Position numbers and translations under genes: made by a program. From positions 1-14,256 of the forward strand of contig JBMFOP010000076.1 of NCBI GenBank assembly GCA_049969675.1: a stretch of 14,256 bases of DNA, read 5' to 3'. The notes below the pieces were generated by a model. It ran no database searches. It was given only the letters and a program-made list of their open reading frames with translations, and had not been told where the DNA came from. Source of the stretch: Myxococcota bacterium (GTDB lineage: Bacteria > Myxococcota > SpSt-1050). This document shows, one piece after another, positions 3-14,256 of this stretch; the first letter of the stretch is position 1, and each line of letters starts with the position of its first letter.

Positions 3-260
3 TATGCTTATGGAGCAAAAGATGCATTAGAACAACTTCCCATTCCCCCCATCACCCCTCAAAACCAGCAAATAGTCCAGCAAATAGAAAACCTTGTAAA
101 CCAAATCCTTTTTCTTACCCAATCTTCCGACTACGAAACAGACCAAAAAAAACAAGCAAAAGTCAAAGAACTTGAATCCCAAATTGACCAATTAGTTTAT
201 AAACTTTATGATTTAACAGAGGAAGAGATAAAAATAATTGAAGGAGCGTCATTATGTTAA
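3..260 (+). CDS. 3' end (partial) of a Type IIG / Eco57I-like restriction-modification enzyme (end of target-recognition region and conserved C-terminal helical tail)
   Basis: Manual translation of frame 3 is open from the window edge to TAA at 258-260: YAYGAKDALEQLPIPPITPQNQQIVQQIENLVNQILFLTQSSDYETDQKKQAKVKELESQIDQLVYKLYDLTEEEIKIIEGASLC*. 'LPIP...IDQLVYKLYDLTEEEIKIIE' is the characteristic C-terminus of Type IIG/TaqI-C-type N6-methyltransferase RM proteins. It is absent from the ORF track and overlaps the next ATG (254) by 7 nt. Confidence 0.85.
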   Translation, partial: YAYGAKDALEQLPIPPITPQNQQIVQQIENLVNQILFLTQSSDYETDQKKQAKVKELESQIDQLVYKLYDLTEEEIKIIEGASLC

Positions 261-1954
261 CAAAAATTGTTATAAAGAACTTTAAGAGATTAGATGTTGA
301 GTTGGATCTATCCCCTGTTGTTGTGTTTGTTGGACCAAATAATTCTGGTAAGACATCGGCATTGCAGGCGATATCCCTATGGGACATTGGTTTAAGAAAA
401 TGGGTTGAACTTAAAGGAACTAAAACATCAAAGGCAAAAAAGAGAACTGGTGCCGCAATAAACAGAAAAGACATTTACAATATTCCTGTCCCTTCACTGA
501 GAGAATTATGGAAAGACCTGCAGGTTAGAAGTACCATAAAAAATAAAGGTAAGCAAGCAACAAAAAACATCACTATTCAGATCTCACTTGAAGGAAACAC
601 AGATGGAAAGAATTGGTCTTTTGGATTGGAATTTGATTTTGCTAATGCCGAGGTTTGTTATGTTAGACCAACTGATGTCCCGGATGATGAAACTATCAAA
701 ATTGTCCTGAAAGAAAGGGTTGTCTTCCTTCCACCTATGTCTGGATTGTCTGCTGAAGAATATAAATTGGAGCCTGGCACCATAAATGTTTTTATTGGTC
801 AGGGTAAAACCGCAGATGTACTAAGAAATCTCTGCTGGTATGTCTTCAATAATAACAAAGAAAAATGGAAAGTAATTGTGGAGTTGATAAATAATATGTT
901 TGGAATAAAACTCAATGAACCAGAATATGACCCTGCCACCGGTAGGATTGTTGTCACCTATAAAGAAAGAAATACAAACTATGACTTGATAAACGGAGGA
1001 AGGGGATTTCATCAGGTTTTACTACTATTAGCCTATATCTATGTTAATCCCGGAACTATTATTTTAATAGATGAACCGGATGCACATTTAGAAATTTTAA
1101 GGCAGAGGCAGGTCTTTAATCTGCTTTGCGATATTTTAGCCCGTGAAAAATCCCAGTTAATCATAGCAACACATTCAGAGGCACTACTAAATGAAGCAGT
1201 TCAAAAATCCAATATAATTGCTTTTCTCGGTAAGCCACATATTGTAAATACAAGTTCACAACTGATAAAATCATTGACCTCAATTGGGTTTGAGCAATAT
1301 CTTCTTGCAGAACAAAAGGGATGGGTTTTGTATTTAGAAGGTTCCACAGATTTGGATTTACTTAAGGGATTTGCAAAGGTATTAAATCATCCTGTCTTAC
1401 AATACCTGGAAAGTCCGTTTATTAGATATGTTGGAAACAAACCTGAGGATGCAAGAAATCACTATTATGGCTTAAAAGAGGCAGTTCAGGATTTAATAGC
1501 AGTTGCATTGTACGACAGGGTTGAGAAAGAACTCCGGCAAGATGACCTGTATGAAATGATGTGGACAAGGAGGGAGATAGAAAATTATCTGCCTTTACCA
1601 GAGGTAGTGGAGCGATTTTTCACAGCGCAACCCCGTGACCTATTTTCAAACAAGGATCCTGAATTAATCGCTGAAATTATTAAAGAGGAAGTTCCACCAG
1701 CCGCATTAAAAGATAAGAACCACGACTTTTGGGTAAATACAAAAATAAGCGACGAATTTTTGGATAAGATTTTAAAAAAATTTGCCGAGGGAAAAAACAC
1801 AAAAGTTCCTCTCAGTAAGAAGGATTATTATCTTTTGATTCAATATGCAAAGCCAGAGGAAATATTAGAGGAAGTTAAAGAAAAATTGGATAAGATTTTT
1901 GAAATAGCAGAAAAAGCGGAGAAAAATAAGATAGATGTATCTATTCATTGGTAA
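254..1954 (+). CDS. ABC-type (AAA_15/AAA_21-like) ATPase fused to a TOPRIM-like domain; OLD-family-like putative anti-phage nuclease
   Basis: 566 aa. N-terminal IVIKNFKRL, Walker A GPNNSGKT, degenerate signature NGGRG, Walker B/D-loop ILIDEPDAHL, H-loop IATHS. C-terminal VLYLEGSTD (TOPRIM glutamate), LYDR and RREIENYL motifs. SD-like GAAGGAG at 240-246. Confidence 0.8.
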   Translation: MLTKIVIKNFKRLDVELDLSPVVVFVGPNNSGKTSALQAISLWDIGLRKWVELKGTKTSKAKKRTGAAINRKDIYNIPVPSLRELWKDLQVRSTIKNKGKQATKNITIQISLEGNTDGKNWSFGLEFDFANAEVCYVRPTDVPDDETIKIVLKERVVFLPPMSGLSAEEYKLEPGTINVFIGQGKTADVLRNLCWYVFNNNKEKWKVIVELINNMFGIKLNEPEYDPATGRIVVTYKERNTNYDLINGGRGFHQVLLLLAYIYVNPGTIILIDEPDAHLEILRQRQVFNLLCDILAREKSQLIIATHSEALLNEAVQKSNIIAFLGKPHIVNTSSQLIKSLTSIGFEQYLLAEQKGWVLYLEGSTDLDLLKGFAKVLNHPVLQYLESPFIRYVGNKPEDARNHYYGLKEAVQDLIAVALYDRVEKELRQDDLYEMMWTRREIENYLPLPEVVERFFTAQPRDLFSNKDPELIAEIIKEEVPPAALKDKNHDFWVNTKISDEFLDKILKKFAEGKNTKVPLSKKDYYLLIQYAKPEEILEEVKEKLDKIFEIAEKAEKNKIDVSIHW

Positions 1955-2000
1955 AAGAGCAAAAGCTAAAAACTGCTGGGGGTAGAAAATTCCGTACCTA

Positions 2001-2115
2001 TTTTATTGACCAAAACAGGGGGTAAAAAACATTAAAATTTATTTCCCATGAAAATAAAAAATTCGTAATTCGTTGTTTTACAATATGTTTTATTGACCAA
2101 AACAAGGGGTAAAAA
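2001..2115 (+). repeat. Pair of 28-bp direct repeats (2001-2028 and 2088-2115)
   Basis: ttttattgaccaaaacagggggtaaaaa versus ttttattgaccaaaacaaggggtaaaaa: 27/28 identical, starts 87 bp apart. Confidence 0.9.
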
Positions 2116-2177
2116 GCAATAACCTCCGCACCCCTGTGGTGAAAAAAAAATCAACCACAGAGAAACACAGAGAAAAA

Positions 2178-2239
2178 AACCTCGCCCCTTCCCCTCTCCT
2201 TTACAAGGAGAGGGGTGCCCGCCAAGGCGGGGTGAGGTT
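2178..2239. repeat. GC-rich nested palindromic element (REP/MITE-like)
   Basis: Outer arms aacctcgcccc (2178-2188) / ggggtgaggtt (2229-2239), one G-T pair. Perfect inner stem cccctctcctt (2191-2201) / aaggagagggg (2205-2215). Extra hairpin cccgcc-aa-ggcggg (2218-2231). Confidence 0.8.
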
Positions 2240-2245
2240 GAAAAT

Positions 2246-2383
2246 ATGCAGGTGGATACGAGTGCGTTAGAGCGAGAAATAGACCAATTGGTTTATCTGC
2301 CTGTGCCGTGCTTGGCAAGGCAGACAGGCAAACTTTATGACTTAACAGAGGAAGAGGTAAAAATCATTGAAGGTAAAAATTAA
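2246..2383 (+). pseudogene. Orphan copy of the Type IIG RM C-terminal tail (45-aa mini-ORF) carrying an in-frame 33-bp palindromic insertion
   Basis: ATG 2246 to TAA 2383 gives MQVDTSALEREIDQLVY-[LPVPCLARQTG]-KLYDLTEEEVKIIEGKN*. Excluding the insert, 2277-2296 plus 2330-2373 match 181-244 at 59/64 nt (manual count). Confidence 0.85.
2297..2329. repeat. 33-bp palindromic insertion element
   Basis: ctgcctgtgccgtgcttggcaaggcagacaggc, with pairing gcctgt/acaggc, gcc/ggc and tgc/gca. Its limits are defined by alignment with the uninterrupted copy (tat|aaa at 198-203). Confidence 0.8.
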
Positions 2384-2405
2384 TGACCAGAAAAGCCCTT
2401 GATGA

Positions 2406-2747
2406 CATCATTTTCCCCATGCAACATTGGATGAATTTGTAATAATGCCTAACCATTTGCATGGAATAATTATTATCAATGATGTAGGGGCGAATAATTA
2501 TTCGCCCCTACAATCACAACATACATCTCAATTTCGTTTACCATCACAATCCATCGGTTCAATTATACGCGGATTCAAAATCGGTGTTACCAAATGGTTT
2601 CATCAAAATACAGGTGTAGACACAATCTGGCAAAGGAATTATTATGAACATATCATACGGGATGACAAAGAATTAAATGAAATTCGTGTTTATATAATCA
2701 ACAATCCATTAAAATGGGAATTGGATAAATACTATTCAGAAAAATGA
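2406..2747 (+). pseudogene. 5'-truncated REP-associated tyrosine transposase (RAYT, IS200/IS605-related Y1 HUH)
   Basis: HHFPHATLDEFVIMPNHLHGII (HUH motif), SIGSIIRGFK, WQRNYYEHIIRD, and YIINNPLKW (catalytic Tyr helix). An in-frame TGA at 2403-2405 lies directly upstream and the usual N-terminal part is missing. Confidence 0.85.
2483..2512. repeat. GTAG-type REP: perfect 30-bp palindrome inside the RAYT frame
   Basis: tgtaggggcgaataattattcgcccctaca is a perfect inverted repeat with GTAG near both 5' ends. It translates as VGANNYSPL. Confidence 0.9.
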
Positions 2748-2838
2748 TACCCGATTTAAATATTCTTGGTAACCGCTATGGGTGTTATGATGTTTCAAAA
2801 ACAAGGAACTATTATATGATTAAAATGACCTTCAAATT

Positions 2839-2983
2839 CCAAATCCTCTCCCTCACTCAATTCCCTGACTATGAGAACAAATCAAACGAAGCAGGCAAAA
2901 GAAAAAGAACTTGAAGAACAAATTGACAGGATGGTATATAAATTTTATAATTAACCCCAGAGAAGATAGGGGGTTGGAAGGTG
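2839..2983 (+). pseudogene. Third, frameshifted copy of the Type IIG RM C-terminal tail
   Basis: Aligns with 101-244: QILSLTQFPDYE /+1 shift/ TNQTKQAKEKELEEQIDRMVYKFYN /shift/ TPEKI..EG versus QILFLTQSSDYETDQKKQAKVKELESQIDQLVYKLYDLTEEEIKIIEG. Confidence 0.8.
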
Positions 2984-2987
2984 TAAG

Positions 2988-3242
2988 ATGAAGTCTATCA
3001 GACTATCAGGACATGCAAAAGAGCAACTATCCTATAGAGGTACTACAGAAGAAGAGGTTATAGAAGCAATTCGAACATCTCCCTGGCAACAGGCAGAGCT
3101 TGGAAGGCTGGAATGTAGAAAAGAGTTTATCTATGAAAAAGAGTGGAATAAAAGGTATTATAAAATAAAGCAGATCAGACCGATATTTGTTGAAGAAAAA
3201 GAGGAGATTGTAGTAGTAACCGTTTATACATACTTTTATTAA
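2988..3242 (+). CDS. DUF4258-like protein (putative RelE/BrnT-like toxin)
   Basis: 84 aa. N-terminal IRLSGHAKEQLSYRGTTEEEVIEAI and C-terminal EIVVVTVY match the DUF4258 pattern. It lies next to a DUF2283-like gene. SD-like GGAAGG upstream. Confidence 0.75.
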   Translation: MKSIRLSGHAKEQLSYRGTTEEEVIEAIRTSPWQQAELGRLECRKEFIYEKEWNKRYYKIKQIRPIFVEEKEEIVVVTVYTYFY

Positions 3243-3257
3243 AACAGGAGGTTTAAG

Positions 3258-3473
3258 ATGAGAATCACTTATGACCCTGAGGTGGATGCCCTTTATATAA
3301 GGTTTCTGGAAACAACAGTGACTACTAAGCATGTAGCGGAAGGCATCGCAATAGATTATGAAGCAGAGGGGAAGATTGCCGGTATAGAGATACTTGATGC
3401 AGTAAAGCGGTTTGGCAGTAAAGATGTCTTTAAAAAGGTAATCCTTGAAGACCTTGCACTGCATACAACATAA
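3258..3473 (+). CDS. DUF2283-like protein (putative antitoxin)
   Basis: 71 aa. MRITYDPEVDALYIRF...IAIDY...GKIAGIEILDA is the DUF2283 signature. Strong SD AGGAGG upstream. Confidence 0.85.
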   Translation: MRITYDPEVDALYIRFLETTVTTKHVAEGIAIDYEAEGKIAGIEILDAVKRFGSKDVFKKVILEDLALHTT

Positions 3474-3581: not shown

Positions 3582-3724
3582 CAATCCTCAATTCCTCTTC
3601 TGTGAAGAGGTGGACGATAGATTCGGACTGGGAGTTCCATTTTTTAAAGTTGTTGATTTGTTTTCAACTACTTTGTCAGTCCTCTAAACTGCCACCCATT
3701 CTTTGAAGGGGAATGAGCGGATTG
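3582..3724. other. Long imperfect rod-like inverted repeat (candidate structured RNA or palindromic element)
   Basis: Nested pairings: caatc..ctca / tgag..gattg; attcctcttc (3591-3600) / gaaggggaat (3705-3714); ggtgg (3609-3613) / ccacc (3692-3696); ggactg (3625-3630) / cagtcc (3677-3682); aaagttgttga (3646-3656) / tcaactacttt (3664-3674). Confidence 0.55.
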
Positions 3725-3740
3725 TTGGCGATAGGAGACA

Positions 3741-3756
3741 GGGCAAAGCTTTGCTC
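3741..3756. terminator. Short palindrome between convergent units; possible terminator
   Basis: gcaaagctttgc (3743-3754) is a perfect palindrome about 20 nt past the stop of 3777-4841. There is no clear U-tract. Confidence 0.25.
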
Positions 3757-3776
3757 CGCCTCGTGGTCTACAGACT

Positions 3777-4841
3777 TTATAGTGCCTTATTTATCTCAAT
3801 ATCATCCGAATTTATGTTTGGGGAGCGGTTTGATGGGAGATTGTGTATTTTGATTACATCGTTGGGAGATATAATTTTGAGCCTACTTTTCTCATCACCT
3901 CCTCTTGCAAGTACTTTGACATTTAATATCTCACTGCCATTACAGATTTGTAAATCAAACCCATATTTTCTCCTGTCTGGATATGTGAGAACTCTATATA
4001 GATGTGGGTCAATAGTCTTCTTAGTGCGAGACAGGACAAGATAACAGAACTTTGCAAATCTGTGATTTGCATTTATTACACTCTCCAGTTGAATAGAGAT
4101 ATCCTGCCTGATGTTGAATCTACAGATTTTATCTGTTCCCATTGAAAGCGGGCAGTTGTCCGGAGATGGACAGGGGGCAAGTATATATTCTGCAAATATT
4201 TCTCTCATTCTTTTGAGCATCTCTAATGATTCTGATTTGATTGGCTCTATAATGATTACAGTATTGAGTTGATTTAACTCAAGTAGATCTGATACTAAAT
4301 CAATAGATTCTTCGGCCTTACCTCTATTCTCGGATAGAGAGTTCATAAAGAGAAAGAGTGAGGGGCTTTTGGGGGAAGGTGAATTTGCAAGAAAATCAGC
4401 CTTTATGATTATATATTCAGATGTTGAAATCCTTTTGAGAATTTTGGCAGCGATTGAGAGCATAAATGGATTTTTATCTATTAAGAAAAGTCTCTTTCTA
4501 TCCGGGTCAATGAGGTTGATTAGAATGCCTGCGGTTCCGCTTCCACACCCGAGGTCATATACATCTTCAATTCTCTTTAGAAGGGCTGGAAATCTTTTTA
4601 AGAGTTCAGAATAGACAAAGAATATCTTCGGAATATGTTCTGGAAGGAAATAGAGCGCATAGGCAAGTGCATCCTCTTCGCTGGTTATGTTGAACTTATT
4701 TAAGATGTAGTTGCGATTTAAATTCTCTACCCTTTTCTTTATCTCGGAGGCTCTGAGATTACTCTCTTCAAATAATTCATCAAGTGCACTCCGCAGAATG
4801 ACAGAAATATCAGAGTGGATTTCATCTCTGTTTGAGGACAT
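3777..4841 (-). CDS. Rsm22/METTL17-like class I SAM-dependent methyltransferase
   Basis: 354 aa. AYALYFLP, SAM motif DLGCGSGT, IIIEP, and the ILAPCPSPDNCPL...ICRF...KFCYLVL segment typical of the Rsm22 family. Confidence 0.75.
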   Translation of the reverse strand: MSSNRDEIHSDISVILRSALDELFEESNLRASEIKKRVENLNRNYILNKFNITSEEDALAYALYFLPEHIPKIFFVYSELLKRFPALLKRIEDVYDLGCGSGTAGILINLIDPDRKRLFLIDKNPFMLSIAAKILKRISTSEYIIIKADFLANSPSPKSPSLFLFMNSLSENRGKAEESIDLVSDLLELNQLNTVIIIEPIKSESLEMLKRMREIFAEYILAPCPSPDNCPLSMGTDKICRFNIRQDISIQLESVINANHRFAKFCYLVLSRTKKTIDPHLYRVLTYPDRRKYGFDLQICNGSEILNVKVLARGGDEKSRLKIISPNDVIKIHNLPSNRSPNINSDDIEINKAL

Positions 4842-6210
4842 CGGGATACTTCTTGAGTAATTTTGCCAGATTGCTCCTGTCCATCCCCGCGAGCTCTGCA
4901 GCCTTTGAGATATTCCCCCCGGTTCGTTTTAGGAGCTCTGAGAAATAGTTCTTTTCAAAAGACTCTATGACCCTCTTTTTGGCATCTGCATATCTTTCGC
5001 CTGTAAATCTCTCTCTCTCTTTATTGTTGACTCTGGTTATATATGATGGAAGGTCCTGAAATTTGATGACATCACTTCTTGTCATTACAACTGAACGTTC
5101 AATTGCATTCTCAAGCTCTCTAATATTTCCGGGCCAGTTATAATTTTCAAGGGCGATAATCGTCTCCGGGGCAAAGCCTTTTATAACCTTATTCTGTTGA
5201 GTAGAGAACCTCTTGAGAAAGTGTGTGGCAAGAATGAGGATATCCTCTCTTCGTTCTCTAAGTGGAGGCAGGTCTATCTCAATGACATTCAGGCGATAGT
5301 AGAGGTCCTCTCTGAATTTTCCCTCTTTTATCAATTGATTTAAATCTTTGTTGGTGGCTGATACAATTCTTACATCAATCTTGATATTCTCGTTTGAGCC
5401 AATTCTTCTGATCTCCCGCTCCTGAATCGCCCGCAGGAGTTTAACCTGAAAATTTAACGGTATATCTCCCACCTCATCTAAAAACACTGTCCCGCCATTT
5501 GCATATTCAAGTAGCCCTTTCTTATTGTCGTATGCGTTTGTGAATGCGCCCTTTATATGTCCGAAGAGTTCACTCTCAAAGAGGGTCTCTGTGATGGCAG
5601 AGCAATTAATAGGTACAAAGGGGGCTGTACTCCTGCTGCTCTTTTTATGGATGGCACGGGCTACCAGTTCTTTCCCTGTCCCGCTCTCTCCGGTAATGAG
5701 GATGCTGGAATCTGTTGGGGCAATGGTCTCAATGGTCTCAAAGACCTTTTTCATTACATTTGAACGTCCGATTATTCCACAGAAGCTGTATTCGGATTCA
5801 AATCCTTTTCGTAAGGTATCTATCTCTAAAAGCAGTCTGCGTTTTTCAAGTGCCCGTTCTATAATGGATATCACAAGTTCCAGATTGATAAATGGCTTCT
5901 GTATCAGGTCATATGCCCCTTCTTTGATGGCGGTTACCGCATTCTGAACTGTTGCCATGCCAGAGATTATAATTACTTCTGTATGCTGATATCTCTTTTT
6001 TGTCTTTTTTAGCAGCTCGATCCCGTCTATCTCCGGCATGTTGATGTCAAAGATGCAGAGGTCTGGCTCTGAGGTATTTATAAAGTTGATGGCACTGATA
6101 GGATTTGTAAATGCATTGATATCGTATCCCCTCTTTGAGGCGATTGCCTTAAATACAGTTAGTACGCTCTCATCGTCATCTACCACGACTATCCTGGCAC
6201 GGTTTTGCAT
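4822..6210 (-). CDS. Sigma-54-dependent response regulator, NtrC family (REC-AAA+-Fis HTH)
   Basis: 462 aa. VVDDD and phosphoacceptor DINMP, GESGTGKE, ESELFGHIKGAFTNA, FLDEVG, FREDLYYRL, WPGNIREL, and a C-terminal GNISKAAELAGMDRSNL HTH. Confidence 0.97.
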   Translation of the reverse strand: MQNRARIVVVDDDESVLTVFKAIASKRGYDINAFTNPISAINFINTSEPDLCIFDINMPEIDGIELLKKTKKRYQHTEVIIISGMATVQNAVTAIKEGAYDLIQKPFINLELVISIIERALEKRRLLLEIDTLRKGFESEYSFCGIIGRSNVMKKVFETIETIAPTDSSILITGESGTGKELVARAIHKKSSRSTAPFVPINCSAITETLFESELFGHIKGAFTNAYDNKKGLLEYANGGTVFLDEVGDIPLNFQVKLLRAIQEREIRRIGSNENIKIDVRIVSATNKDLNQLIKEGKFREDLYYRLNVIEIDLPPLRERREDILILATHFLKRFSTQQNKVIKGFAPETIIALENYNWPGNIRELENAIERSVVMTRSDVIKFQDLPSYITRVNNKERERFTGERYADAKKRVIESFEKNYFSELLKRTGGNISKAAELAGMDRSNLAKLLKKYPDVLKQR

Positions 6211-6213
6211 CTT

Positions 6214-6954
6214 CTATTGATTCCCCTTAAGCTCAAAAATCCTTTTATATTCTTCTGTTGGCTTCCCCTCAGAATTAAAGAGTATGAGCGGCGGAAGTAT
6301 CTCAAGAGATGACCTGCCAAACTTTACGCCTTCAACAAGTGCTATATTTGATGAGCTATTCGGTCTGTGATATACGAGCCTCAATCTCTTAGGCTCAATC
6401 TTTCTCATTCTCATAAGATAGAAGAGGTCCACAAGTCTCATTGTGGGGTAGACGAGTTTCAATAGCCCCTTTGATTTTAAAAGGTATCTTGAAATATTTA
6501 ATATGTCCTGAATACGGAGCAGAATCTCATGTCTGGCGAGCGCCTTCTCGGAGAAGGTGCTGATTATTCCGTGGTCAACCTGCGTATATGGAGGATTTGA
6601 GATAACTACATCAAATATCTGAGGTCCAAAATTCTCTTTGAGTTTTCTTATGTCCTGACTGAGTATCTCTACTTTTGATTCCACCCCATTTAATCTTACA
6701 TTTTGAATTGCCAGTTCAGATAATCTCTTTTGAATCTCTACTCCATATATCTTTTCAACATCAAAAGATTTTGTAGCAACGATTATAGGGATTATTCCAC
6801 ACCCTGTCCCAAGGTCTATTGAGAGCCCTCTTATATTTGAACTGAAATCTGCAAGCAGGATTGAATCCTCATTGAATCTGTATCCATCTTTTGGCTGATA
6901 TACCTTTATTCTGCCACCGAAGATGCTGTCCAGACTGTTTTCTGTTTGATTCAT
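6214..6954 (-). CDS. tRNA1(Val) adenine-37 N6-methyltransferase family protein (YfiC/YabB-like)
   Basis: 246 aa. YQPKDGYRFNEDSILLADF, DLGTGCGII, NPPY, ARHE and EPKRLRLV motifs. Confidence 0.9.
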   Translation of the reverse strand: MNQTENSLDSIFGGRIKVYQPKDGYRFNEDSILLADFSSNIRGLSIDLGTGCGIIPIIVATKSFDVEKIYGVEIQKRLSELAIQNVRLNGVESKVEILSQDIRKLKENFGPQIFDVVISNPPYTQVDHGIISTFSEKALARHEILLRIQDILNISRYLLKSKGLLKLVYPTMRLVDLFYLMRMRKIEPKRLRLVYHRPNSSSNIALVEGVKFGRSSLEILPPLILFNSEGKPTEEYKRIFELKGNQ

Positions 6955-6960
6955 ATACTT

Positions 6961-7431
6961 TTAGAAATTGATAAGTTTAATTTTCAATGTATTTGCCTTT
7001 GGTGTAATCTCGGCAAATCTTCCTTGAGGCCTTTCTGTCTCAAAGATGTCCAGTTCCCTGAGGAGGGGATTCTTATTATAGTAATAGACAGATTCTGCTG
7101 CACTCACTGCCTGATAAATTCTATTAACCGCTGCTATTGCGACTGCCAAAATTATGGACCTATCACTGTAGTTGTCAAAGTAGAGGGTTAAGAAGCCGAG
7201 ACCGAGTCCGGCGATGTCATAGGCGATATATCTGATTCCGCCCCAGGTGTCTTTTGCATAAAAATGCCCTGAACCAAAACCGACAATAAAGGCGAGCGGG
7301 ATGGCTACGAAGTAGCTCTTCTCTGTAAAATTATTTTGTAGCACTGAGTTCTTATTTGCATCGGTGTCGGTTGTCTGTGCGTAGATAGAAAGGGATATGA
7401 GCATTAAAGTTAAAAACGCAATTGACTTCAT
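6961..7431 (-). CDS. Exported or membrane hypothetical protein, weakly Borrelia P13-like
   Basis: 156 aa. Signal peptide ending IYA-Q, three hydrophobic segments, and LAFIVGFGSGHFYAKD. Overlaps the ybeY stop by 4 nt. Confidence 0.6.
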   Translation of the reverse strand: MKSIAFLTLMLISLSIYAQTTDTDANKNSVLQNNFTEKSYFVAIPLAFIVGFGSGHFYAKDTWGGIRYIAYDIAGLGLGFLTLYFDNYSDRSIILAVAIAAVNRIYQAVSAAESVYYYNKNPLLRELDIFETERPQGRFAEITPKANTLKIKLINF

Positions 7432-7883
7432 ACGAAAAACTCCTTTCTATAAATTTTATATAGAGCCATTTCCCTCTCCCTCATTATCTTCCTCTCACTT
7501 CTCTCTGTATGGTCAAATCCAATCAGATGTAATATTGCATGGATAACAACTTTTAATAGATAGTCATTGAATCGCCTCTTCTGGCTCCTGCTCCTTCTCA
7601 TAATGGTTTCAAGAGAGATGACCACATCCCCGAGCGGGATTTTTGAATTACAGAAAAGTATTGGCTCTCTGAGATCACCTCTGTAAAAGTCATATTGTGG
7701 GAAGGAGAGGACATCTGTGGTCCTATTAATGTGCCGATATTTTGAGTTTAATTCTCTGATTCCATTGTCGTCTGTCAGTGAGTAAGAGACATCAAAGAGA
7801 TTAAAGCCCAAGTCTCTTAAGATCACTGTCGTTATCGTCTGGATCCTCTTCTTTATCAGATGTTCCGTTTTCTGCCTTTTCAT
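7428..7883 (-). CDS. ybeY: rRNA maturation endoribonuclease YbeY
   Basis: IRELNSKYR, TDVLSFP, LGDVVIS and the metal-binding HAILHLIGFDH motif. Canonical position after phoH and the HD protein. Confidence 0.95.
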   Translation of the reverse strand: MKRQKTEHLIKKRIQTITTVILRDLGFNLFDVSYSLTDDNGIRELNSKYRHINRTTDVLSFPQYDFYRGDLREPILFCNSKIPLGDVVISLETIMRRSRSQKRRFNDYLLKVVIHAILHLIGFDHTERSERKIMREREMALYKIYRKEFFV

Positions 7884-10239
7884 CGCCCTGTTTCCTCTGT
7901 GTATCTGAGAGTTTTACGGCTGGTTCAAAATACTCCGGCCTCTGATGATATATACCATCCAGTACCTTTATAAATGCGCGCGCAATCTTGTCCAGGTCCC
8001 TCAATGTCAGGTCGCACTCAGAGAGCTGCCCATCCTTAAAGATTGAGTTGATAATCTTCTGTACAAGTCCACGAAGTCGGGTTGCGTCCAGGTCCGGCAC
8101 AGATTTCGCAGCCGCCTCCACTGAGTCAGCGAGCATAACCAGTGCAGACTCTCTGGTCTGTGGTTTTGGTCCTAAATATCTAAAATCTCCTTCATTCACC
8201 GCCTCTCCCATATTCTTTGCCTTTTGATAAAAGTATTTAATGAGTGATGTGCCGTGGTGTTGTTCTATTACATCCAGAATGGGTTGCCCGAGTCTGTAAT
8301 TTCTTGCCATATCAATTCCATCCTTGACATGGGCCTTGAGTATAAGTGCGCTCATCGTCGGTTTAATTGAGTCGTGCTTATTTATCCCGTCCTTCTGGTT
8401 CTCTCCAAAGTAGTCGGGTTTGTTTATCTTACCGATGTCGTGATAATATGCACAGACCTTTGCGAGTAATGGATTGGCTCCTATATCCTCTGCCGCCGTC
8501 TCTACAAGGGATGCCACAACTATAGAGTGATGGTAGGTGCCTGGCGCCTTAACTATCAGTTCTTTTAAGAGTGGATGGTTGAGATTTGCAAGTTCAAGGA
8601 GTTTGATATCTGTAATATAGTCCATTGCAACTTCCAGAACAGGTGCTGATGAGGTGACTATCATTGAGACCATAACTCCATTGATAAAACCGAGAAGGCA
8701 TCCTAAGAGTATGGTGACTGTAATCTGCTCGCCACGCATAAGTGTAAAGATAACAATCATTATAGCATTCATAATCCCGGTCATAAGCCCACCTTTGAGA
8801 ATGATTGCCCTTGTCGTAGCATGTGCAACACTGTATGCAGCGATGAGTGAGCCGATGAGTGTATAAAATCCATAGTACATATCGCCCGCTGTTAAAAGAT
8901 ATGAAAAGCCAGAGATAACAATTGAGAATATAACGGCTGTCTCACTATTGAGAATAAATCTTACGAGCATCGCCCCTGCTGCAAAGGGTATCATATACTC
9001 CCATATAAACTGCGGGATATTGGGAAAGTAGTCGCTGAGTGCCACGCATACTGTGAGAAGTAGTTTTCCAAATATAACTGTAAATGCCGCGAGTATCCCC
9101 ATCAGTAGTATATCTTTTGTCTTTGGAGCAAACTTTCTAATATATGTCTTTGCAAAGACGAATGGGACCAGAATGATTATCGTAGAAAATAGAAACATCC
9201 CTATGGTTGTAATTATGTCTCTCACCTTTGTCGTCTGTCTATAAATCCCCTTAAATAACTTTATATGGTCGTGTGTAATCTTTTCGCCATCCCTTATGAG
9301 TATATCTCCCTTCTTTATATTGATCGTTATTGGAGTAATCTGATTTAGTGCCTCCTCCTTTCTCCTCTCGGTCTCAGCCGCATTGTAAAATAGATTTGGC
9401 TTAATGAGTTTTGAGGCTATGGATATAATAATCTTTCTCTCCTCTTTGCTGTATTCAGCCAGAAGGAAGATTATCTTCTTCTCAATCAACTTTTTGACCT
9501 CACCTATATCCTTGATAGAGGTGATAGAGGAGATTATTCCCTCCGCCCGTTGTTCTTTTGCGTATATTCTCTGAATCATTATTCCGGAGCCCTTCTCCTG
9601 AATCAACCTATTCTTATCCTCTACTATGACCTCCTGCATAACAGGTTGAACAATGGAGATAATCCCATCCTCTATCTCTCTGGAGAATCTCAGATAAATC
9701 AACTTATTATATTCCTCATCAGTAAGTTTTATCCCGAGTGCCTTTTCAAATTCCTCTCTACCTGTTAGTGCTACCTCTCTAATCACCTCCTGTTCCCTCT
9801 TTTTGATGTTTTCAAGTGCCTTTTTGGAGATAGTCGCATCTGGATTCTCCTGTTCATCACCCTGATAGAGCTCAATCTGTATGTTGTTGCGGATATAATT
9901 GAATGCCTCTTTTACAGCGTCAGAGATATTGTCTGATAGAGAGGCATCAAAGAAAAAGACCGGTTTTACATTTTTGATGGCATCCTCCCTCGCCTTCTTT
10001 GTTGCCTCTTCATCCACGATGATGTAGTCCCTATCAGCCCTTATCGTTGCAGTTGATACCTTCCCTACATTCTGGTCGTCAGCGGGGAGTTCCATCTGTT
10101 TTATAAGGGGTGATGTGGCAACAGTCACAGAGGCAACGGCTATTAAGAAAGAGATGAATTTAATGAAACCGGAGTGCCTATCCATAAATCTAACTTTGCG
10201 ACTCTGCATTAAATTGTCTGTTCGAAAGTCTGTTGCCAT
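7801..10239 (-). CDS. 7TM-HD (HDIG) membrane phosphodiesterase, PgpH-like
   Basis: N-terminal TM, large extracytoplasmic domain, about 7 TM helices, then APGTYHHS, YYHDIGK, QHHGT, GPKPQTRE and MLADSVEAA. The start is placed at ATG 10239 (MATDF) rather than the track's TTG at 10257, which overlaps phoH. Confidence 0.93.
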   Translation of the reverse strand: MATDFRTDNLMQSRKVRFMDRHSGFIKFISFLIAVASVTVATSPLIKQMELPADDQNVGKVSTATIRADRDYIIVDEEATKKAREDAIKNVKPVFFFDASLSDNISDAVKEAFNYIRNNIQIELYQGDEQENPDATISKKALENIKKREQEVIREVALTGREEFEKALGIKLTDEEYNKLIYLRFSREIEDGIISIVQPVMQEVIVEDKNRLIQEKGSGIMIQRIYAKEQRAEGIISSITSIKDIGEVKKLIEKKIIFLLAEYSKEERKIIISIASKLIKPNLFYNAAETERRKEEALNQITPITINIKKGDILIRDGEKITHDHIKLFKGIYRQTTKVRDIITTIGMFLFSTIIILVPFVFAKTYIRKFAPKTKDILLMGILAAFTVIFGKLLLTVCVALSDYFPNIPQFIWEYMIPFAAGAMLVRFILNSETAVIFSIVISGFSYLLTAGDMYYGFYTLIGSLIAAYSVAHATTRAIILKGGLMTGIMNAIMIVIFTLMRGEQITVTILLGCLLGFINGVMVSMIVTSSAPVLEVAMDYITDIKLLELANLNHPLLKELIVKAPGTYHHSIVVASLVETAAEDIGANPLLAKVCAYYHDIGKINKPDYFGENQKDGINKHDSIKPTMSALILKAHVKDGIDMARNYRLGQPILDVIEQHHGTSLIKYFYQKAKNMGEAVNEGDFRYLGPKPQTRESALVMLADSVEAAAKSVPDLDATRLRGLVQKIINSIFKDGQLSECDLTLRDLDKIARAFIKVLDGIYHQRPEYFEPAVKLSDTQRKQGDEKAENGTSDKEEDPDDNDSDLKRLGL

Positions 10240-10240
10240 G

Positions 10241-11191
10241 CTATCTTCTCTTCTCAAACGCCTTTATAATTTCCTGTACAAGAGGATGTCTTACCACATC
10301 CTGTTCAGACATAAAACAAAATTCTATACCATCTATATCTTTTAAGATATCAACACACTCCACAAGCCCGGATTTTACATGGTTTGGTAGGTCTATCTGT
10401 GTGATATCTCCGGTAATTACAACCTTTGAAGAGAAGCCCATTCGAGTAAGAAACATCTTGATCTGGTCAATCGTAGTATTTTGTGCCTCATCTAATATCA
10501 CAAATGAATCGTTGAGGGTCCTTCCTCTCATAAATGCGAGGGGAGCTACCTCTATTATTCCTCTGGAAATTAACGATTGAAATCTCTCAAACTCCATCAT
10601 ATCGTTGAGGGCGTCATAAAGCGGTCTCAGATATGGATTGACCTTCTCCTCAAGGTCGCCGGGTAAAAATCCAAGTTTCTCCCCGGCCTCCACAGCCGGT
10701 CTTGTAAGAATAATTCTTTTTACAGTCTTATTTAGCAGGGCGGTTATAGCCATAGCCATTGCCAGATAGGTCTTACCGGTCCCCGCTGGACCTATTCCAA
10801 ATACAATATCATTCTTTCTTATTGCATCCACATATCTCTTCTGTCCGAGAGTCTTTGGAGTTATTGACCTGTTTTTAGAGACTACAAAGATGGTATCCAT
10901 ATAGATGTCGGAGAGTGATATCTCTGGATTGTTCTTTAATGTCCTGATGCCATATTCAATGTCCTGAGCGGTGATTGTATGGCCTGTGTTGATAATTTCA
11001 CAGAACTCCCTGATGACCCTTTCTGCAAATTCGGTATCTCCCCTTTCGCCCCTCAGAACGACCTGATTACCTCTCGTGTCAAATAATACATTGAGTCGCT
11101 TTTTGAAGACACTGGCTATATCGTTCTGATGGAGAAAGAGCTGACGCGCTGTATCAATATTTGAGAGTTCAATCTTTATCATATCGCTCAT
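10241..11191 (-). CDS. phoH: PhoH family ATPase (YbeZ-like)
   Basis: 316 aa. GPAGTGKTYLA, RPAVEAGEKLGFLPGD, PLAFMRGRTL, DEAQN and VVRHPLV motifs. Confidence 0.97.
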   Translation of the reverse strand: MSDMIKIELSNIDTARQLFLHQNDIASVFKKRLNVLFDTRGNQVVLRGERGDTEFAERVIREFCEIINTGHTITAQDIEYGIRTLKNNPEISLSDIYMDTIFVVSKNRSITPKTLGQKRYVDAIRKNDIVFGIGPAGTGKTYLAMAMAITALLNKTVKRIILTRPAVEAGEKLGFLPGDLEEKVNPYLRPLYDALNDMMEFERFQSLISRGIIEVAPLAFMRGRTLNDSFVILDEAQNTTIDQIKMFLTRMGFSSKVVITGDITQIDLPNHVKSGLVECVDILKDIDGIEFCFMSEQDVVRHPLVQEIIKAFEKRR

Positions 11192-11204
11192 TCAGCACTC
11201 CATA

Positions 11205-12344
11205 TCAATAAAGTGGATTTTGAATTATAACAGCATCACCCTCTTTTTTAAATATATATTTCATCTTAAATGGGTATGAGAGGTCTCTCTCTTCAAGAAG
11301 CCCACTCTTTACAAGTAGGTCCATCTGTTCGGGTAGATGCCCCTGTATGTGTCTGTACACCTCAATGGAGTTTTTGATTCGTTCCCTGGTAATCTCTGAT
11401 AACAGCTGCTTGTAGATCGACACCCTTACCGCTGCATTGAGGCTCTCTGACTGCACTGTCTTTATTCTGGAAATAATACCACCAACAAGCAATATCACCA
11501 GAAGGAATGCAATAATTCCAAGGAAGAGATTTAGAATAAGAACAGAAGGAATAACGACCTTCTTGGTATTCAGTGGCCCACCCTTGAGGGCGTTAAACTG
11601 TATAGGGTGTTTTGGTCTCTTTGCCTGTAATATACCTGTTCTGACAAGATTATAGAGGGCTTTGCAACTCTCAAATTCGCCGAGCCTTGATATGTCTATT
11701 AGTTTCTGGACATCATAGTTTGGATTTTCTAATATAAGTGAATATATCCTCTTCTCGGACTCTCCAAATTCGTTCTGACTGGAGATCTTATCAAAATCCT
11801 CTGCCATAGGATTGAGTTCAAAGGTCATATTTACGGCGCTTATGACATTGTTAATAGATGGCCATTCATCTACAACCCTGAATGTATCCATCAGAACACT
11901 ATCGGTTGGTTGAGGGGTATCATATGCAGAATTTACAGAGATCTCGGATGGCTCAAATTCAAATTCTCCCTCCTTCCACCCCATCAGTTTATAGAGTAGT
12001 TCGCTATTCTTGAGCCTGATAAAGACAATGAGGTCTTCACGACTCACAAAATTTTCATCCAGAAGTATATCCTCTGTCCGTCGCATACTCTTGCTTCTCT
12101 TATCAACAATATACTGAAAGTCCTTTGGGGTAATTACCCCTGCTCTGAGTAGCATGGTGAGAAGTATATCTGCGGGTTTGCCGCCTTCAAATACCTCGGA
12201 ACGAACAATGTTGCCATTATAGAAGTAAACCCGCATCATAAATCTGCCGGACCTGATGTGCAGGATGCCGGACTTTGTCTGTTGAGCAATCAACTGAAAG
12301 ATGTCTGCCAGATTGAAGTCTTTTAATGAGCCAGCAAGCGCCAT
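11205..12344 (-). CDS. DUF4388 (PATAN-like) domain protein with a single TM and a C-terminal extracytoplasmic domain
   Basis: MALAGSLKDFNLADIFQLIAQQTKSGIL...WKEGEFEF is the DUF4388 pattern. A winged-helix-like segment (SRLGEFESCKALYNL) and a TM (ILNLFLGIIAFLLVILLVGGII) follow. Confidence 0.85.
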   Translation of the reverse strand: MALAGSLKDFNLADIFQLIAQQTKSGILHIRSGRFMMRVYFYNGNIVRSEVFEGGKPADILLTMLLRAGVITPKDFQYIVDKRSKSMRRTEDILLDENFVSREDLIVFIRLKNSELLYKLMGWKEGEFEFEPSEISVNSAYDTPQPTDSVLMDTFRVVDEWPSINNVISAVNMTFELNPMAEDFDKISSQNEFGESEKRIYSLILENPNYDVQKLIDISRLGEFESCKALYNLVRTGILQAKRPKHPIQFNALKGGPLNTKKVVIPSVLILNLFLGIIAFLLVILLVGGIISRIKTVQSESLNAAVRVSIYKQLLSEITRERIKNSIEVYRHIQGHLPEQMDLLVKSGLLEERDLSYPFKMKYIFKKEGDAVIIQNPLY

Positions 12345-12347
12345 ATT

Positions 12348-14255
12348 CTAATCCCTCTTAAAGCAGTTTTTAAGGTTTATAAGATAAGCGATACCTCCAG
12401 CGATCAAAATGGGGATCTTAAAGAATGTCTCAAATCCCGTTGTAGAGAAGTATGGCAGTGGATTTGGACGATTAAAGAAGAAGAATGAGATGAATCCAGA
12501 GATAGAGAGGAGAAGTATAACCAGTCCCTTTGTAGGTCCCCCCTTCCAGATAAAGACAGTGCCCGGTATCACAATAGAGAGTAATCTGGTGGTCATATCA
12601 TGCAGAAATTGGTAGCTTGAAATCTCCTTGTCTTTGATGAATCTGTTCTTGGGGTCAGAGACATCCCTTCTGGTGAATATATGAAAGCATTGAGCACATT
12701 CATCGTCGCTGTGCAGTTCGGGGCTACAACGTTTGCATACTGGTCTTCCGCACCTCTGACAGGTATAGGAGATTGTTATCCTCTTTGAGGTCAACTCAAG
12801 ACCAACAATTAAAACAGATATAATGATCAGCCAGAACATTACATCAGAGGTAATTATACCTCCGGTGATGTAGTATTCAAATGGGAGATAAAGTCTTGTA
12901 TTTGAGGTTAAATCCCCTTTTATCAAATTTGTAAGATTGATATTGAATTCAGGTTCTAAATCATAGATAAAACGATTTATACCCGAAGTGGAGTTCTTCA
13001 GGAGTGTGGAGATAAATTCCTCATTAAATCTCTTTGCCTCCATTAACTCTGAATTACTCTTATCCAGCTCCTTCTTTCTTAAGAATAGTCGGGAGATATT
13101 GTATCTTACGACCGCTGATTGCGGCTCAAGGTTGAGTGCGTTATTGTACTGGGTGAGTGCCTCATCATATTTTTCGGTGATTAGATAAAGATTTCCAAGA
13201 TTGTTATAGGCGATTGTATTTGAGGCATTTAGTTCAATTGCCTTTTTATACATCTTCTCGGCAATTTCAAAATCCCCTCTCCTCTTAGAGAGAAGCCCTG
13301 AGACGATATAGTCATCAACAGAGGCATTCCCTGAATCTATTCTCTGTTTCAGTCTTGATAAGGCCTCAGGGTCTTCAAATTTTAATGCCTTGAAGGTGTA
13401 TATTTCTTCACTTCTATAGATATTGAGCAATCTGTTGTAGAGACTGAAGTTGTAAGGGAGAGTAGATATTAAAATAATCAATATGACAAGCAGTACCTTT
13501 TCCCGCTTTTTTAGATATACCCAGAGGAAGATACAGCTTATGAATATAAAGTGAAATACGGATAAAAATCTGATAATTATAATAAAGAAGACAGATAACC
13601 AGATAATGTACGAAATGAATGTAGACCTTCCAGCCGGGAAGAGGTGTGAGAGGTCGTGAAGTACTCTATTGGCATTCTTGAGTAGCAATGAAATAATGAA
13701 TAGAAAAGATGTCAAAGAGATGATTAAAGAGATGAGTGTCAGGGTATTTCCGATAATAAGCGGGGCGATATTTATAGGCTGGAAAGTCCGCCTGAGCGCT
13801 CCTATAAGCCGGGTTAGAGGTTTGTAAAGTTCAGTCTTATTGGTAGTCCATAGGACATAGGCATCAAAGAACCATACTTCATATATATCGGGTGATATGG
13901 TAAGTGCTGCCTCAGAGAGCCTTTGAGCGGTTACATAGTCGTTTGCCCTGAGCGCATTTTTTGCCTCCAGCATGAGAGATAGAGAGATGTAAGGTATATT
14001 TGAGATCCCGCTATTAAGTTTATCTTCTATGATCTTCTTTAATTTCTCCTCTGATAAGGCAAACTCCCTCTTTTTGAGATTCTCAATCCTTTCAAACCAG
14101 AGTGCATTGATCTCATCTAATCTTCTCTCGGGGACAACCAGTTTTGTAATTTCCTCCTCTTTCTTTTCTGTAGCCTTTATCTCCTCTCCTCTCTTCTTTT
14201 CCTCCTCCTCTTTTATACCGGCATCCAATGTCTTTGGCTCTTCTCCCTTCTTCTC
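12348..14255 (-). CDS. Multi-pass membrane tetratricopeptide-repeat protein with a Cys-rich Zn-binding module (5' partial)
   Basis: TPR motifs (AEKMYKKAIELN, AYNNLGNLYL, YNNALNLEP), several TM stretches, and CQRCGRPVCKRC...CAQC. The frame stays open past the track's TTG start to the window edge (EKKGEEPKTLDAG). Confidence 0.85.
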   Translation of the reverse strand, partial: EKKGEEPKTLDAGIKEEEEKKRGEEIKATEKKEEEITKLVVPERRLDEINALWFERIENLKKREFALSEEKLKKIIEDKLNSGISNIPYISLSLMLEAKNALRANDYVTAQRLSEAALTISPDIYEVWFFDAYVLWTTNKTELYKPLTRLIGALRRTFQPINIAPLIIGNTLTLISLIISLTSFLFIISLLLKNANRVLHDLSHLFPAGRSTFISYIIWLSVFFIIIIRFLSVFHFIFISCIFLWVYLKKREKVLLVILIILISTLPYNFSLYNRLLNIYRSEEIYTFKALKFEDPEALSRLKQRIDSGNASVDDYIVSGLLSKRRGDFEIAEKMYKKAIELNASNTIAYNNLGNLYLITEKYDEALTQYNNALNLEPQSAVVRYNISRLFLRKKELDKSNSELMEAKRFNEEFISTLLKNSTSGINRFIYDLEPEFNINLTNLIKGDLTSNTRLYLPFEYYITGGIITSDVMFWLIIISVLIVGLELTSKRITISYTCQRCGRPVCKRCSPELHSDDECAQCFHIFTRRDVSDPKNRFIKDKEISSYQFLHDMTTRLLSIVIPGTVFIWKGGPTKGLVILLLSISGFISFFFFNRPNPLPYFSTTGFETFFKIPILIAGGIAYLINLKNCFKRD

Positions 14256-14256
14256 C

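Follow-up and report, generated by a model that had tools for sequence, protein, structure and literature searches.

We analysed a 14,256-nt stretch of DNA (the window), which is the entire contig C76 of the 188-contig genome of a Myxococcota bacterium (G000; Cnn denotes its contigs, Gnnn other genomes and Lnnn the loci examined), and found that it carries three same-strand copies of the end of a Type IIG restriction-modification (RM) gene, each followed by different content (Table 1). The explanation that we favour, with a probability of about 0.65, is that old RM tails were displaced by recombination into the RM gene and were then reused as short second homology arms. Displacement and reuse are both supported by comparisons among relatives, and would by extension account for the window's own array. 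The tails are thus best described as a recurring genome scar that has found a use and not as a dedicated cassette machine; a dedicated system, a store of specificities and long arrays are not supported.

That three tail copies lie in the same orientation, as a first-pass annotation of this DNA had claimed, was borne out by similarity searches and by a match to Type IIG models. More specifically, the open reading frame (ORF) at 3-260 matches the C-terminal end of PADLOC Type IIG models (PDLC03612, positions 1177-1245 of 1247, E = 3.2e-18), and copy 1 closes with a Shine-Dalgarno-like GAAGGAG (240-246) that precedes the following ATG. The annotation had called 101-260 the live copy; it is indeed the end of a Type IIG gene, but that this gene is live can only be presumed, as the contig edge leaves just its final 85 codons in the window. 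Copy 2 was said to share 59 of 64 nt with copy 1; the similarity stands, while the figure becomes 59 of 67 nt, and only when a 33-nt insertion that had gone unmentioned is set aside. Copy 3 is 73.7% identical to positions 101-213 over 114 nt (E = 3.7e-11). A tail profile built from 62 tail sequences gave no match on 1.93 Mb of reversed sequence, which served as a chance-level control. The copies differ from one another by 12-26% and in subtype, and the two orphans hold about 45-50 codons of the constant tail. The proposal that the most distal copy is the most decayed is loosely right: copy 3 has the frameshift, but copy 2 has the insertion and is the shorter of the two.

A local duplication of copy 1 was rejected as the origin of copy 2 because the upstream segment of copy 2 belongs to the second tail subtype, found in L106, L018, L141 and L024; the earlier suggestion that it is the end of another RM allele is upheld on the same ground. 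Copy 2 also has a mosaic appearance: its last 66 nt are closest to copy 1 (59 identical positions vs at most 57 among 141 other tails), and its last 90 nt are closest to L106 (71 vs 66). Judged by these affinities, it looks like a hybrid of two tails, though the margin is small. Another tail in G000, on C46 (C46:128-140), stops at the same codon as the palindromic insertion of copy 2 and then continues with similar bases.

An all-against-all comparison of loci gave 37 pairs with common downstream DNA, the informative ones being inspected by hand. L174 (G041) and L177 (G061, on a 1.76-Mb contig) represent one chromosomal site: their RM genes are 87% identical over the first ~575 nt and then diverge, L177 having a different C-terminus, a 251-aa cargo and an orphan tail. 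The end of this orphan, together with its flank, matches the live end of L174 at 97.9% over 337 nt, and its 5' part is nearer to the L178 orphan (88%) than to L174 (70%). These two affinities imply a crossover inside the tail, whichever state is older. Similarly, the L160 orphan and 4.5 kb of flank correspond to the live tail and flank of L110 at 89.5%, and the first tail of L160 with its UvrD gene corresponds to L012 at 89.7%. Around one tail that is 86-100% identical between loci (L181; L100/L102; L095/L096; L105), all four combinations of upstream content (the start of an orphan or the end of a recognition domain) and downstream content (cargo or none) were found. L102 was considered as an empty live site and rejected, since its tail is an orphan preceded by another RM allele. 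In L095, L181, L098 and L139 a relic of the old tail, its last ~27 nt, lies behind the cargo, with a short shared motif at the junction of this relic. Empty and filled versions of a site occur in relatives (L105 vs L095; L174 vs L177), and their two tails differ in allele. Breakpoints inside tails, which had been predicted, are therefore seen in relatives, at L174/L177 and elsewhere. The suggestion that the tail acts as a homology anchor holds there as well, given the live/orphan identity and the crossovers within tails; for the window it would follow by analogy.

Tandem orphan tails downstream of Type IIG genes had also been predicted for other genomes, and they were found in many unrelated ones. 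Among 160 related loci (the best 80 of 534 and the best 80 of 437 confirmed matches from two collection scans), 132 have one tail, 26 have two and two have three, so that tails are multiple at 28. With a maximum of three per locus and a single tail at most loci, the idea of a growing array finds no support. The position of extra tails is strictly polar: around 91 intact genes, 18 lie within 6 kb downstream (356 kb), all on the same strand, whereas the 6-kb upstream regions (349 kb) hold none (p = 4.5e-6). Of these 18, three lie at most 100 nt from the stop codon with no cargo between, and an orphan is present at 11 of 59 intact genes having at least 3 kb of downstream sequence. In congener G002, for example, helicase and Type IIG genes are followed by a cargo of 589 aa, then by two decayed tails and finally by an MNT gene, which has a HEPN-like partner. 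Within the family of G041 the tail is present in 15 of 49 genomes, and G058 has four matches within 5 kb, in an array on a 1.8-Mb contig. Occurrence is patchy, and universality of tandem tails was rejected: the phylum of G042 has the tail in 31 of 151 genomes and in none of them two on one contig, and one of 40 other genomes among the window's relatives matched a single-protein query. A tail search of 72,556 plasmids gave no match. At L051:10085-15057, a second helicase-IIG operon, which is complete and lies on the opposite strand, is faced by two broken tails.

What the orphans contain was assessed in 36 downstream orphans, the window's included. The RM-like sequence has a median length of 152 nt and spans 57-546 nt in 34 of them, the other two adjoining a full gene; the longest non-adjacent case is in L051 (546 nt). 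The left ends of the similarity vary from ~21 to 175 nt before the tail end, which is at odds with the tail being a fixed attachment site, as had been considered. A stop, frameshift or 3' truncation interrupts the match in 12 of the 36. Orphans start a median of 55 nt past the stop of the preceding gene, and a median of 58 nt separates the tail from the next ORF, the tails ending in a GAAGG-like sequence near the next start. Because the recognition domain is rarely kept, orphans cannot supply new specificity, and with these short lengths the specificity swapping attributed to them is not supported. No conserved attC-like hairpin was seen in the tails. As a separate observation, intact tail-only ORFs of 64-92 codons with their own start lie directly behind RM genes of a different C-terminus, and the protein database holds many small proteins like them.

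The window itself points to cargo moving together with the tail behind it. Directly upstream of copy 3 lies the 3'-end relic of a gene that we call gene X, which is also found immediately before orphan tails in C46 and L180, with homologues likewise in L177 and L178. Each time, the junction of gene X with the tail stands ahead of differing downstream genes, which indicates that cargo travels with the tail behind it, as reuse of tails as anchors needs. The link to gene X is one of DNA similarity to L180; a protein-level search with the L177 cargo gave no match in the window or G000. The stretch before copy 3 that encodes MGVMMFQK was considered as a methyltransferase relic and rejected: it has no match to live Type IIG proteins and is the end of a cargo gene.

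Taken as a sequence of events, foreign DNA carrying another RM allele with one or more genes behind it would recombine with the resident RM gene through homology within its conserved 5' part. The right-hand junction would form illegitimately, as in homology-facilitated illegitimate recombination (HFIR), or via a short homology. A junction before the old stop codon would shift the old tail and its cargo downstream; one after it would leave no tail. Any tail behind a cargo could then travel with it and offer later events a second homology arm of 60-200 nt, and crossovers in tails would shuffle RM alleles and cargo independently. No dedicated recombinase would be needed, and orphans would decay. 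The enzymes at work, a linear donor and the order of events are what we infer from these patterns, as is the origin of the window's array by displacement.

Several points weigh against this reading. The L174/L177 pair can be read in either direction, and the loci showing four combinations are mostly metagenome contigs, which could be mis-joined at the shared ~180-nt repeat. For the window itself there is no strain pair, three congeners having neither RM genes nor tails at the site, and no joint skipping a unit was found in run X1, a weak test on assembled contigs only. Short orphans without remains of a recognition domain would need later trimming or homologous junctions. Deletion also makes orphans, as one tail on C54 lies inside a collapsed operon ~10 kb upstream of the Type IIG start. 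Finally, the locus set consists of best-scoring subsets, hence its frequencies are not unbiased.

A stronger claim is that tails form a widespread integrase-free cassette system, selection keeping the short copies between defence genes. Host recombination, possibly via tail-to-tail circles, would insert defence genes behind the RM gene, in frame with its expression signals, and would swap the recognition domain in the same event. We regard this as doubtful. At a PADLOC threshold of E = 1e-8 or better, matches were found for 8 of 22 genes following orphans, 13 of 36 following single intact genes and 5 of 52 genes at least 7 kb away (orphan vs distant, p = 0.015; orphan vs single, p = 1.0). The 22 remain from 28 once two duplicates, two window ORFs and two ORFs on the reverse strand are removed; the 36 come from intact loci with a single tail in the first scan only; the 52 remain from 53 after removal of one near-duplicate; generic matches (Csa3; DpdF, mad3) were counted in all sets. 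Cargo of the arrays includes Gabija, OLD, DarT, Mrr_N, MNT and PemK-like genes. The enrichment for defence genes is thus real but the same as beside RM genes in general, which is what orphans that were once live ends should show, and the special enrichment of orphan cargo that had been anticipated is absent. A strict cassette view is also opposed by L093/L104 and L028/L133, where cargo differs without an orphan tail. Nor do cargo families behave as dedicated cassettes: in another phylum, 6 of 201 genomes encode proteins homologous to the window's ATPase at 34-48% identity, and none of the seven loci concerned has a tail within 1.5 kb.

About two thirds of the following genes had no PADLOC match (14 of the 22 behind orphans and 23 of the 36 behind single live genes). 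In four genomes, tails are followed by a candidate defence gene that encodes 165 aa and matches neither Pfam nor PADLOC. Another gene, of 251 aa and likewise lacking a PADLOC match, lies between RM genes and orphan tails in L177 (10104-10859, minus strand), L178, L179 and L180, and a fusion of ~590 aa, with a PDC-M30A-like N-terminal part and a radical SAM part, follows live or orphan tails in L008 (G002), L024, L123, L126 and L173.

Alternatively, a single hotspot may receive whole helicase-IIG operons again and again, which then collapse through internal deletions, with the tail persisting because it contains the ribosome-binding site of the next gene. G000 itself contains such a relic (C54:7530-8376, L004), in which the operon of another lineage was reduced by internal deletions to less than 1 kb with its start and tail kept: the pieces are a helicase start, a distant helicase piece, a piece of the Type IIG middle and the tail, followed on the 3' side by an MNT gene, a broken HEPN-like gene and repeats resembling repetitive extragenic palindromes (REP). 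This relic lies upstream of the live operon and outside the 6-kb polarity count. The GAAGG-like tail ends and the short median distance to the next ORF also suit this explanation. However, most downstream orphans are preceded by no RM remains except the live gene's own end, orphans far exceed the length of a ribosome-binding site, and the strict downstream polarity, the mosaic tails and the four combinations are not predicted. Collapse probably accounts for some orphans, at least the one on C54, but as the general explanation it is improbable.

Ranking behind it, and likewise improbable, is a route through circles of the Rhs type, in which tail-to-tail recombination would excise a circle of tail and cargo and a single crossover would insert it into a tail in a different cell, so that tail and cargo would form genuinely mobile cassettes. 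Fragments of variable length that are shunted downstream are in line with what is proposed for rhs in the relevant part of PMC2935791. Units of tail, cargo and tail are indeed common, and L024 repeats the tail with the start of the same cargo. Orphans behind RM genes of a different C-terminus or behind Type I/III-like systems are left unexplained, as they need a crossover upstream of the tail. In addition, the repeats are mostly 75-90% alike, poor substrates for excision, and no circle junction was present in the X1 contigs, again a weak test. A joint from 245 back to 184 in one contig, with 85% likeness, may stem from a different organism and was left out of account.

Displaced 3' gene ends are a known signature of islands that target gene ends, and orphans could on that basis be displaced attR fragments of integrase-driven islands with the tail as attachment site. 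The variable left ends and the lack of plasmid matches both speak against it. One tyrosine and one serine recombinase query, of low sensitivity, matched 1 of 31 multi-tail loci (weakly, 7 kb upstream) and 7 of 149 single-tail loci, and both queries left C76 and C54 unmatched; we consider such islands very improbable. Least probable of all is an assembly artefact or recent local duplication: the assembly does break at the locus, and a tail-bearing fragment (C183) and an ATPase fragment (the end of C119) exist, but the divergence of the copies in sequence and subtype, the same layout in G002 and on the 1.8-Mb contig of G058, and an X1 contig that covers 2737-3163 (copy 3 and both neighbours) with no differences, none of those listed covering copy 2, all argue otherwise. 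Sequencing-run evidence consists of assembled contigs of runs X1, X2 and X3, of which X1 is possibly the source sample; X2 and X3 yielded next to nothing. The C119 piece (7262-7399) is 138 nt long and 95% identical to 1459-1596 of the window's ATPase gene, representing either a second copy or a strain variant.

Compared with known systems, the closest parallel is rhs, in which homologous recombination shunts the old gene end downstream and leaves orphan fragments of variable length, according to the relevant sections of Jackson et al. (2009, PMC2935791) and of a review (PMC4436062). As in the Rhs, contact-dependent inhibition (CDI) and MafB loci these sections describe, the intact gene is trailed by a tandem row of variable-length pieces of its conserved part, and what comes after each piece varies; the 18 downstream against no upstream tails show the same arrangement here. 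In Rhs, as far as those sections go, the conserved piece precedes a variable tip and orphans store alternative toxin domains. Type IIG tails, in contrast, come after the variable recognition domain, mostly store none (median 152 nt in the 36 orphans), and are followed by variable content in the form of separate genes; their arrays are short and decaying. The core is an RM gene instead of Rhs or CdiA with immunity genes, and the window's cargo consists of an ATPase, a RAYT fragment and DUF4258/DUF2283. By analogy, then, tails appear to work like Rhs tip displacement, yet the locus is neither an Rhs locus nor an integron.

Long target duplication at RM loci, with long, variable direct repeats around the insert and no other mobile element, is reported in the pertinent part of Furuta et al. 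(2010, PMC2853133), along with allelic change of a Type IIG recognition domain. In that case an RM system has been inserted and its target duplicated to form the repeat. The repeat in our loci belongs to the RM gene itself, its copies often derive from different alleles or subtypes, and the DNA between tails is cargo and does not hold R and M genes. No empty site for the window was found in the three congeners. HFIR, in which one homologous and one illegitimate end integrate foreign DNA (PMC3240628), predicts, as outlined there, variable right-hand junctions such as those seen here. It is a laboratory-defined process and not a type of locus, and reuse of old tails as second arms goes beyond it. 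HFIR would require a RecA-dependent anchor at one end, microhomology at the other and a transformable host; G000 encodes ComEC, and the short motif at the 27-nt relic junction would fit microhomology. Integrons and tandem islands at gene 3' ends are arrays of accessory genes, often defence or toxin-antitoxin genes, with a repeated element between them and the newest unit next to the anchor. Unlike integrons, tails have no fixed crossover point (their left ends vary, and both 27-nt relics and relic-free cases occur), their repeats are coding sequence, and no integrase was found: one tyrosine-recombinase query gave no match on C76 or C54, the gap between them being unseen, and matched three other contigs. 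Among open-access full texts, no paper on orphan Type IIG tails was found; the sections consulted of an RM review (PMC12707154) contain no passage on them. The pattern is real and recurrent, is apparently undescribed for Type IIG genes, and represents a new form of C-terminal displacement.

The rest of the RM gene probably lies on C54, a link that is not proven. C54 carries the sole Type IIG N-terminal part in G000 (881 aa), which runs off the contig end behind a helicase gene, and this part and the window tail both match Type IIG models although on different contigs. If they are one gene, ~220 aa including the recognition domain are unassembled. Synteny joining C54 and C76 was not found in congeners. 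PADLOC matches (DrmD/HKD+Snf2 for the helicase, REase_MTase_IIG for the Type IIG parts) suggest an Eco57I-like Type IIG system with an upstream PLD/SNF2-type helicase, here with its gene split across an assembly gap. Between helicase and Type IIG gene, C54:18084-18632 holds a short ORF that we take to be a probably partial DUF1016-like gene. G000 has three further tail pieces: one within the collapsed operon of C54, one with which C46 begins, and one on C183, a contig of 577 bp.

Different content after each tail, as first annotated, was found, with some changes in what the genes are. The ATPase of cargo 1 matches Pfam AAA_15 and AAA_21 and, weakly and partially, the PADLOC models NsnB, AriA and ATPase-Toprim (the last at E = 8e-13); its probable TOPRIM-like part is picked up by the PADLOC model, while a Pfam search gave no TOPRIM match. 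The Y1_Tnp match of cargo 2 (16.9 bits), like that of the DUF4258-like protein, is under the Pfam cut-off, and the transposase fragment clusters with a 235-aa ORF of L069; DUF2283 is clear. The DUF4258-like and DUF2283 genes, which we presume to be toxin and antitoxin, also occur as a pair in L068, after the live tail and before an orphan tail. Blocks resembling the intergenic one at 1998-2122 separate the cargo from the orphan tail in L024, follow the live tail in L026 and the MNT-HEPN-like pair in G002, and occur on C92. This AT-rich spacer, with its TTGAC-containing 35-nt unit, recurs near RM-linked cargo in unrelated genomes, raising the question of whether it is a promoter or operator array. 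The G+C content of the tail and cargo array is 36.3%, compared with 40.8% for 3600-14256, where ordinary housekeeping genes lie, including an Rsm22-like methyltransferase, a sigma-54-type regulator and PhoH.

Table 1. Features of the tail and cargo array, with positions in the window unless a contig or locus is named.
Feature	Position	Strand	Remarks
Tail copy 1, last 85 codons of the Type IIG RM gene	3..260	+	repeated part about 101-247; open at contig edge
Cargo 1, intact 566-aa ABC-type ATPase with probable TOPRIM-like C-terminal part (OLD/AriAB-like)	254..1954	+	start overlaps RM stop
Intergenic block	1998..2122		35-nt direct repeat (2001-2035, 2088-2122)
G+C-rich compound hairpin, REP-like or resembling a miniature inverted-repeat transposable element	2180..2238		directly 5' of copy 2; fold z -5.3
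Orphan tail copy 2, 45-codon ORF	2246..2383	+	upstream segment of the second (ADTS-like) tail subtype; last 66 nt nearest copy 1
In-frame palindromic insertion inside copy 2, 33 nt	2297..2329		loose pattern matches 3 further places in G000
Cargo 2, broken (ATG stub and RAYT/Y1-type transposase fragment)	2383..2747	+	
Cargo 2, ATG stub, 19 codons	2383..2442	+	overlaps RAYT fragment
Cargo 2, C-terminal half of RAYT/Y1-type transposase	2427..2747	+	perfect palindrome at 2483-2512
Gene X, 3'-end relic	2771..2818	+	directly 5' of copy 3; 79% over 63 nt to L180, E = 1e-8
Orphan tail copy 3	2839..2983	+	frameshifted; subtype as in copy 1
Cargo 3a, DUF4258-like small protein, putative toxin	2988..3242	+	22.1 bits, under Pfam cut-off
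Cargo 3b, DUF2283 small protein, putative antitoxin	3258..3473	+	Pfam E = 2.8e-17
Spacer-block sites	window 1998-2122; L024:2632-2755; L026:10290-10407; L008; C92 end		
Tail-only ORFs	L023, L100, L102, L181; also L138, L179, L039		tails at 7337, 2273, 1663 and 1887 in the first four
Orphan behind RM genes of other C-terminus or Type I/III-like	L023, L100, L102, L114, L156, L160, L179, L185		
165-aa gene	C183; L060:9493-9993; L173:12209-12706; L186:1071-1739		

How defence genes gather beside RM genes without integrases is largely open, and tails provide a concrete, datable marker of the process, each tail recording a displacement event and ordering the cargo. If tails are only passive scars, they would be a modest addition to the evolution of RM systems. 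One long arm in the RM gene combined with one short arm in the tail would give a testable route for the turnover of defence islands in many phyla, and the tail profile may serve as a discovery tag, unmatched genes that follow tails being candidate new defence genes.

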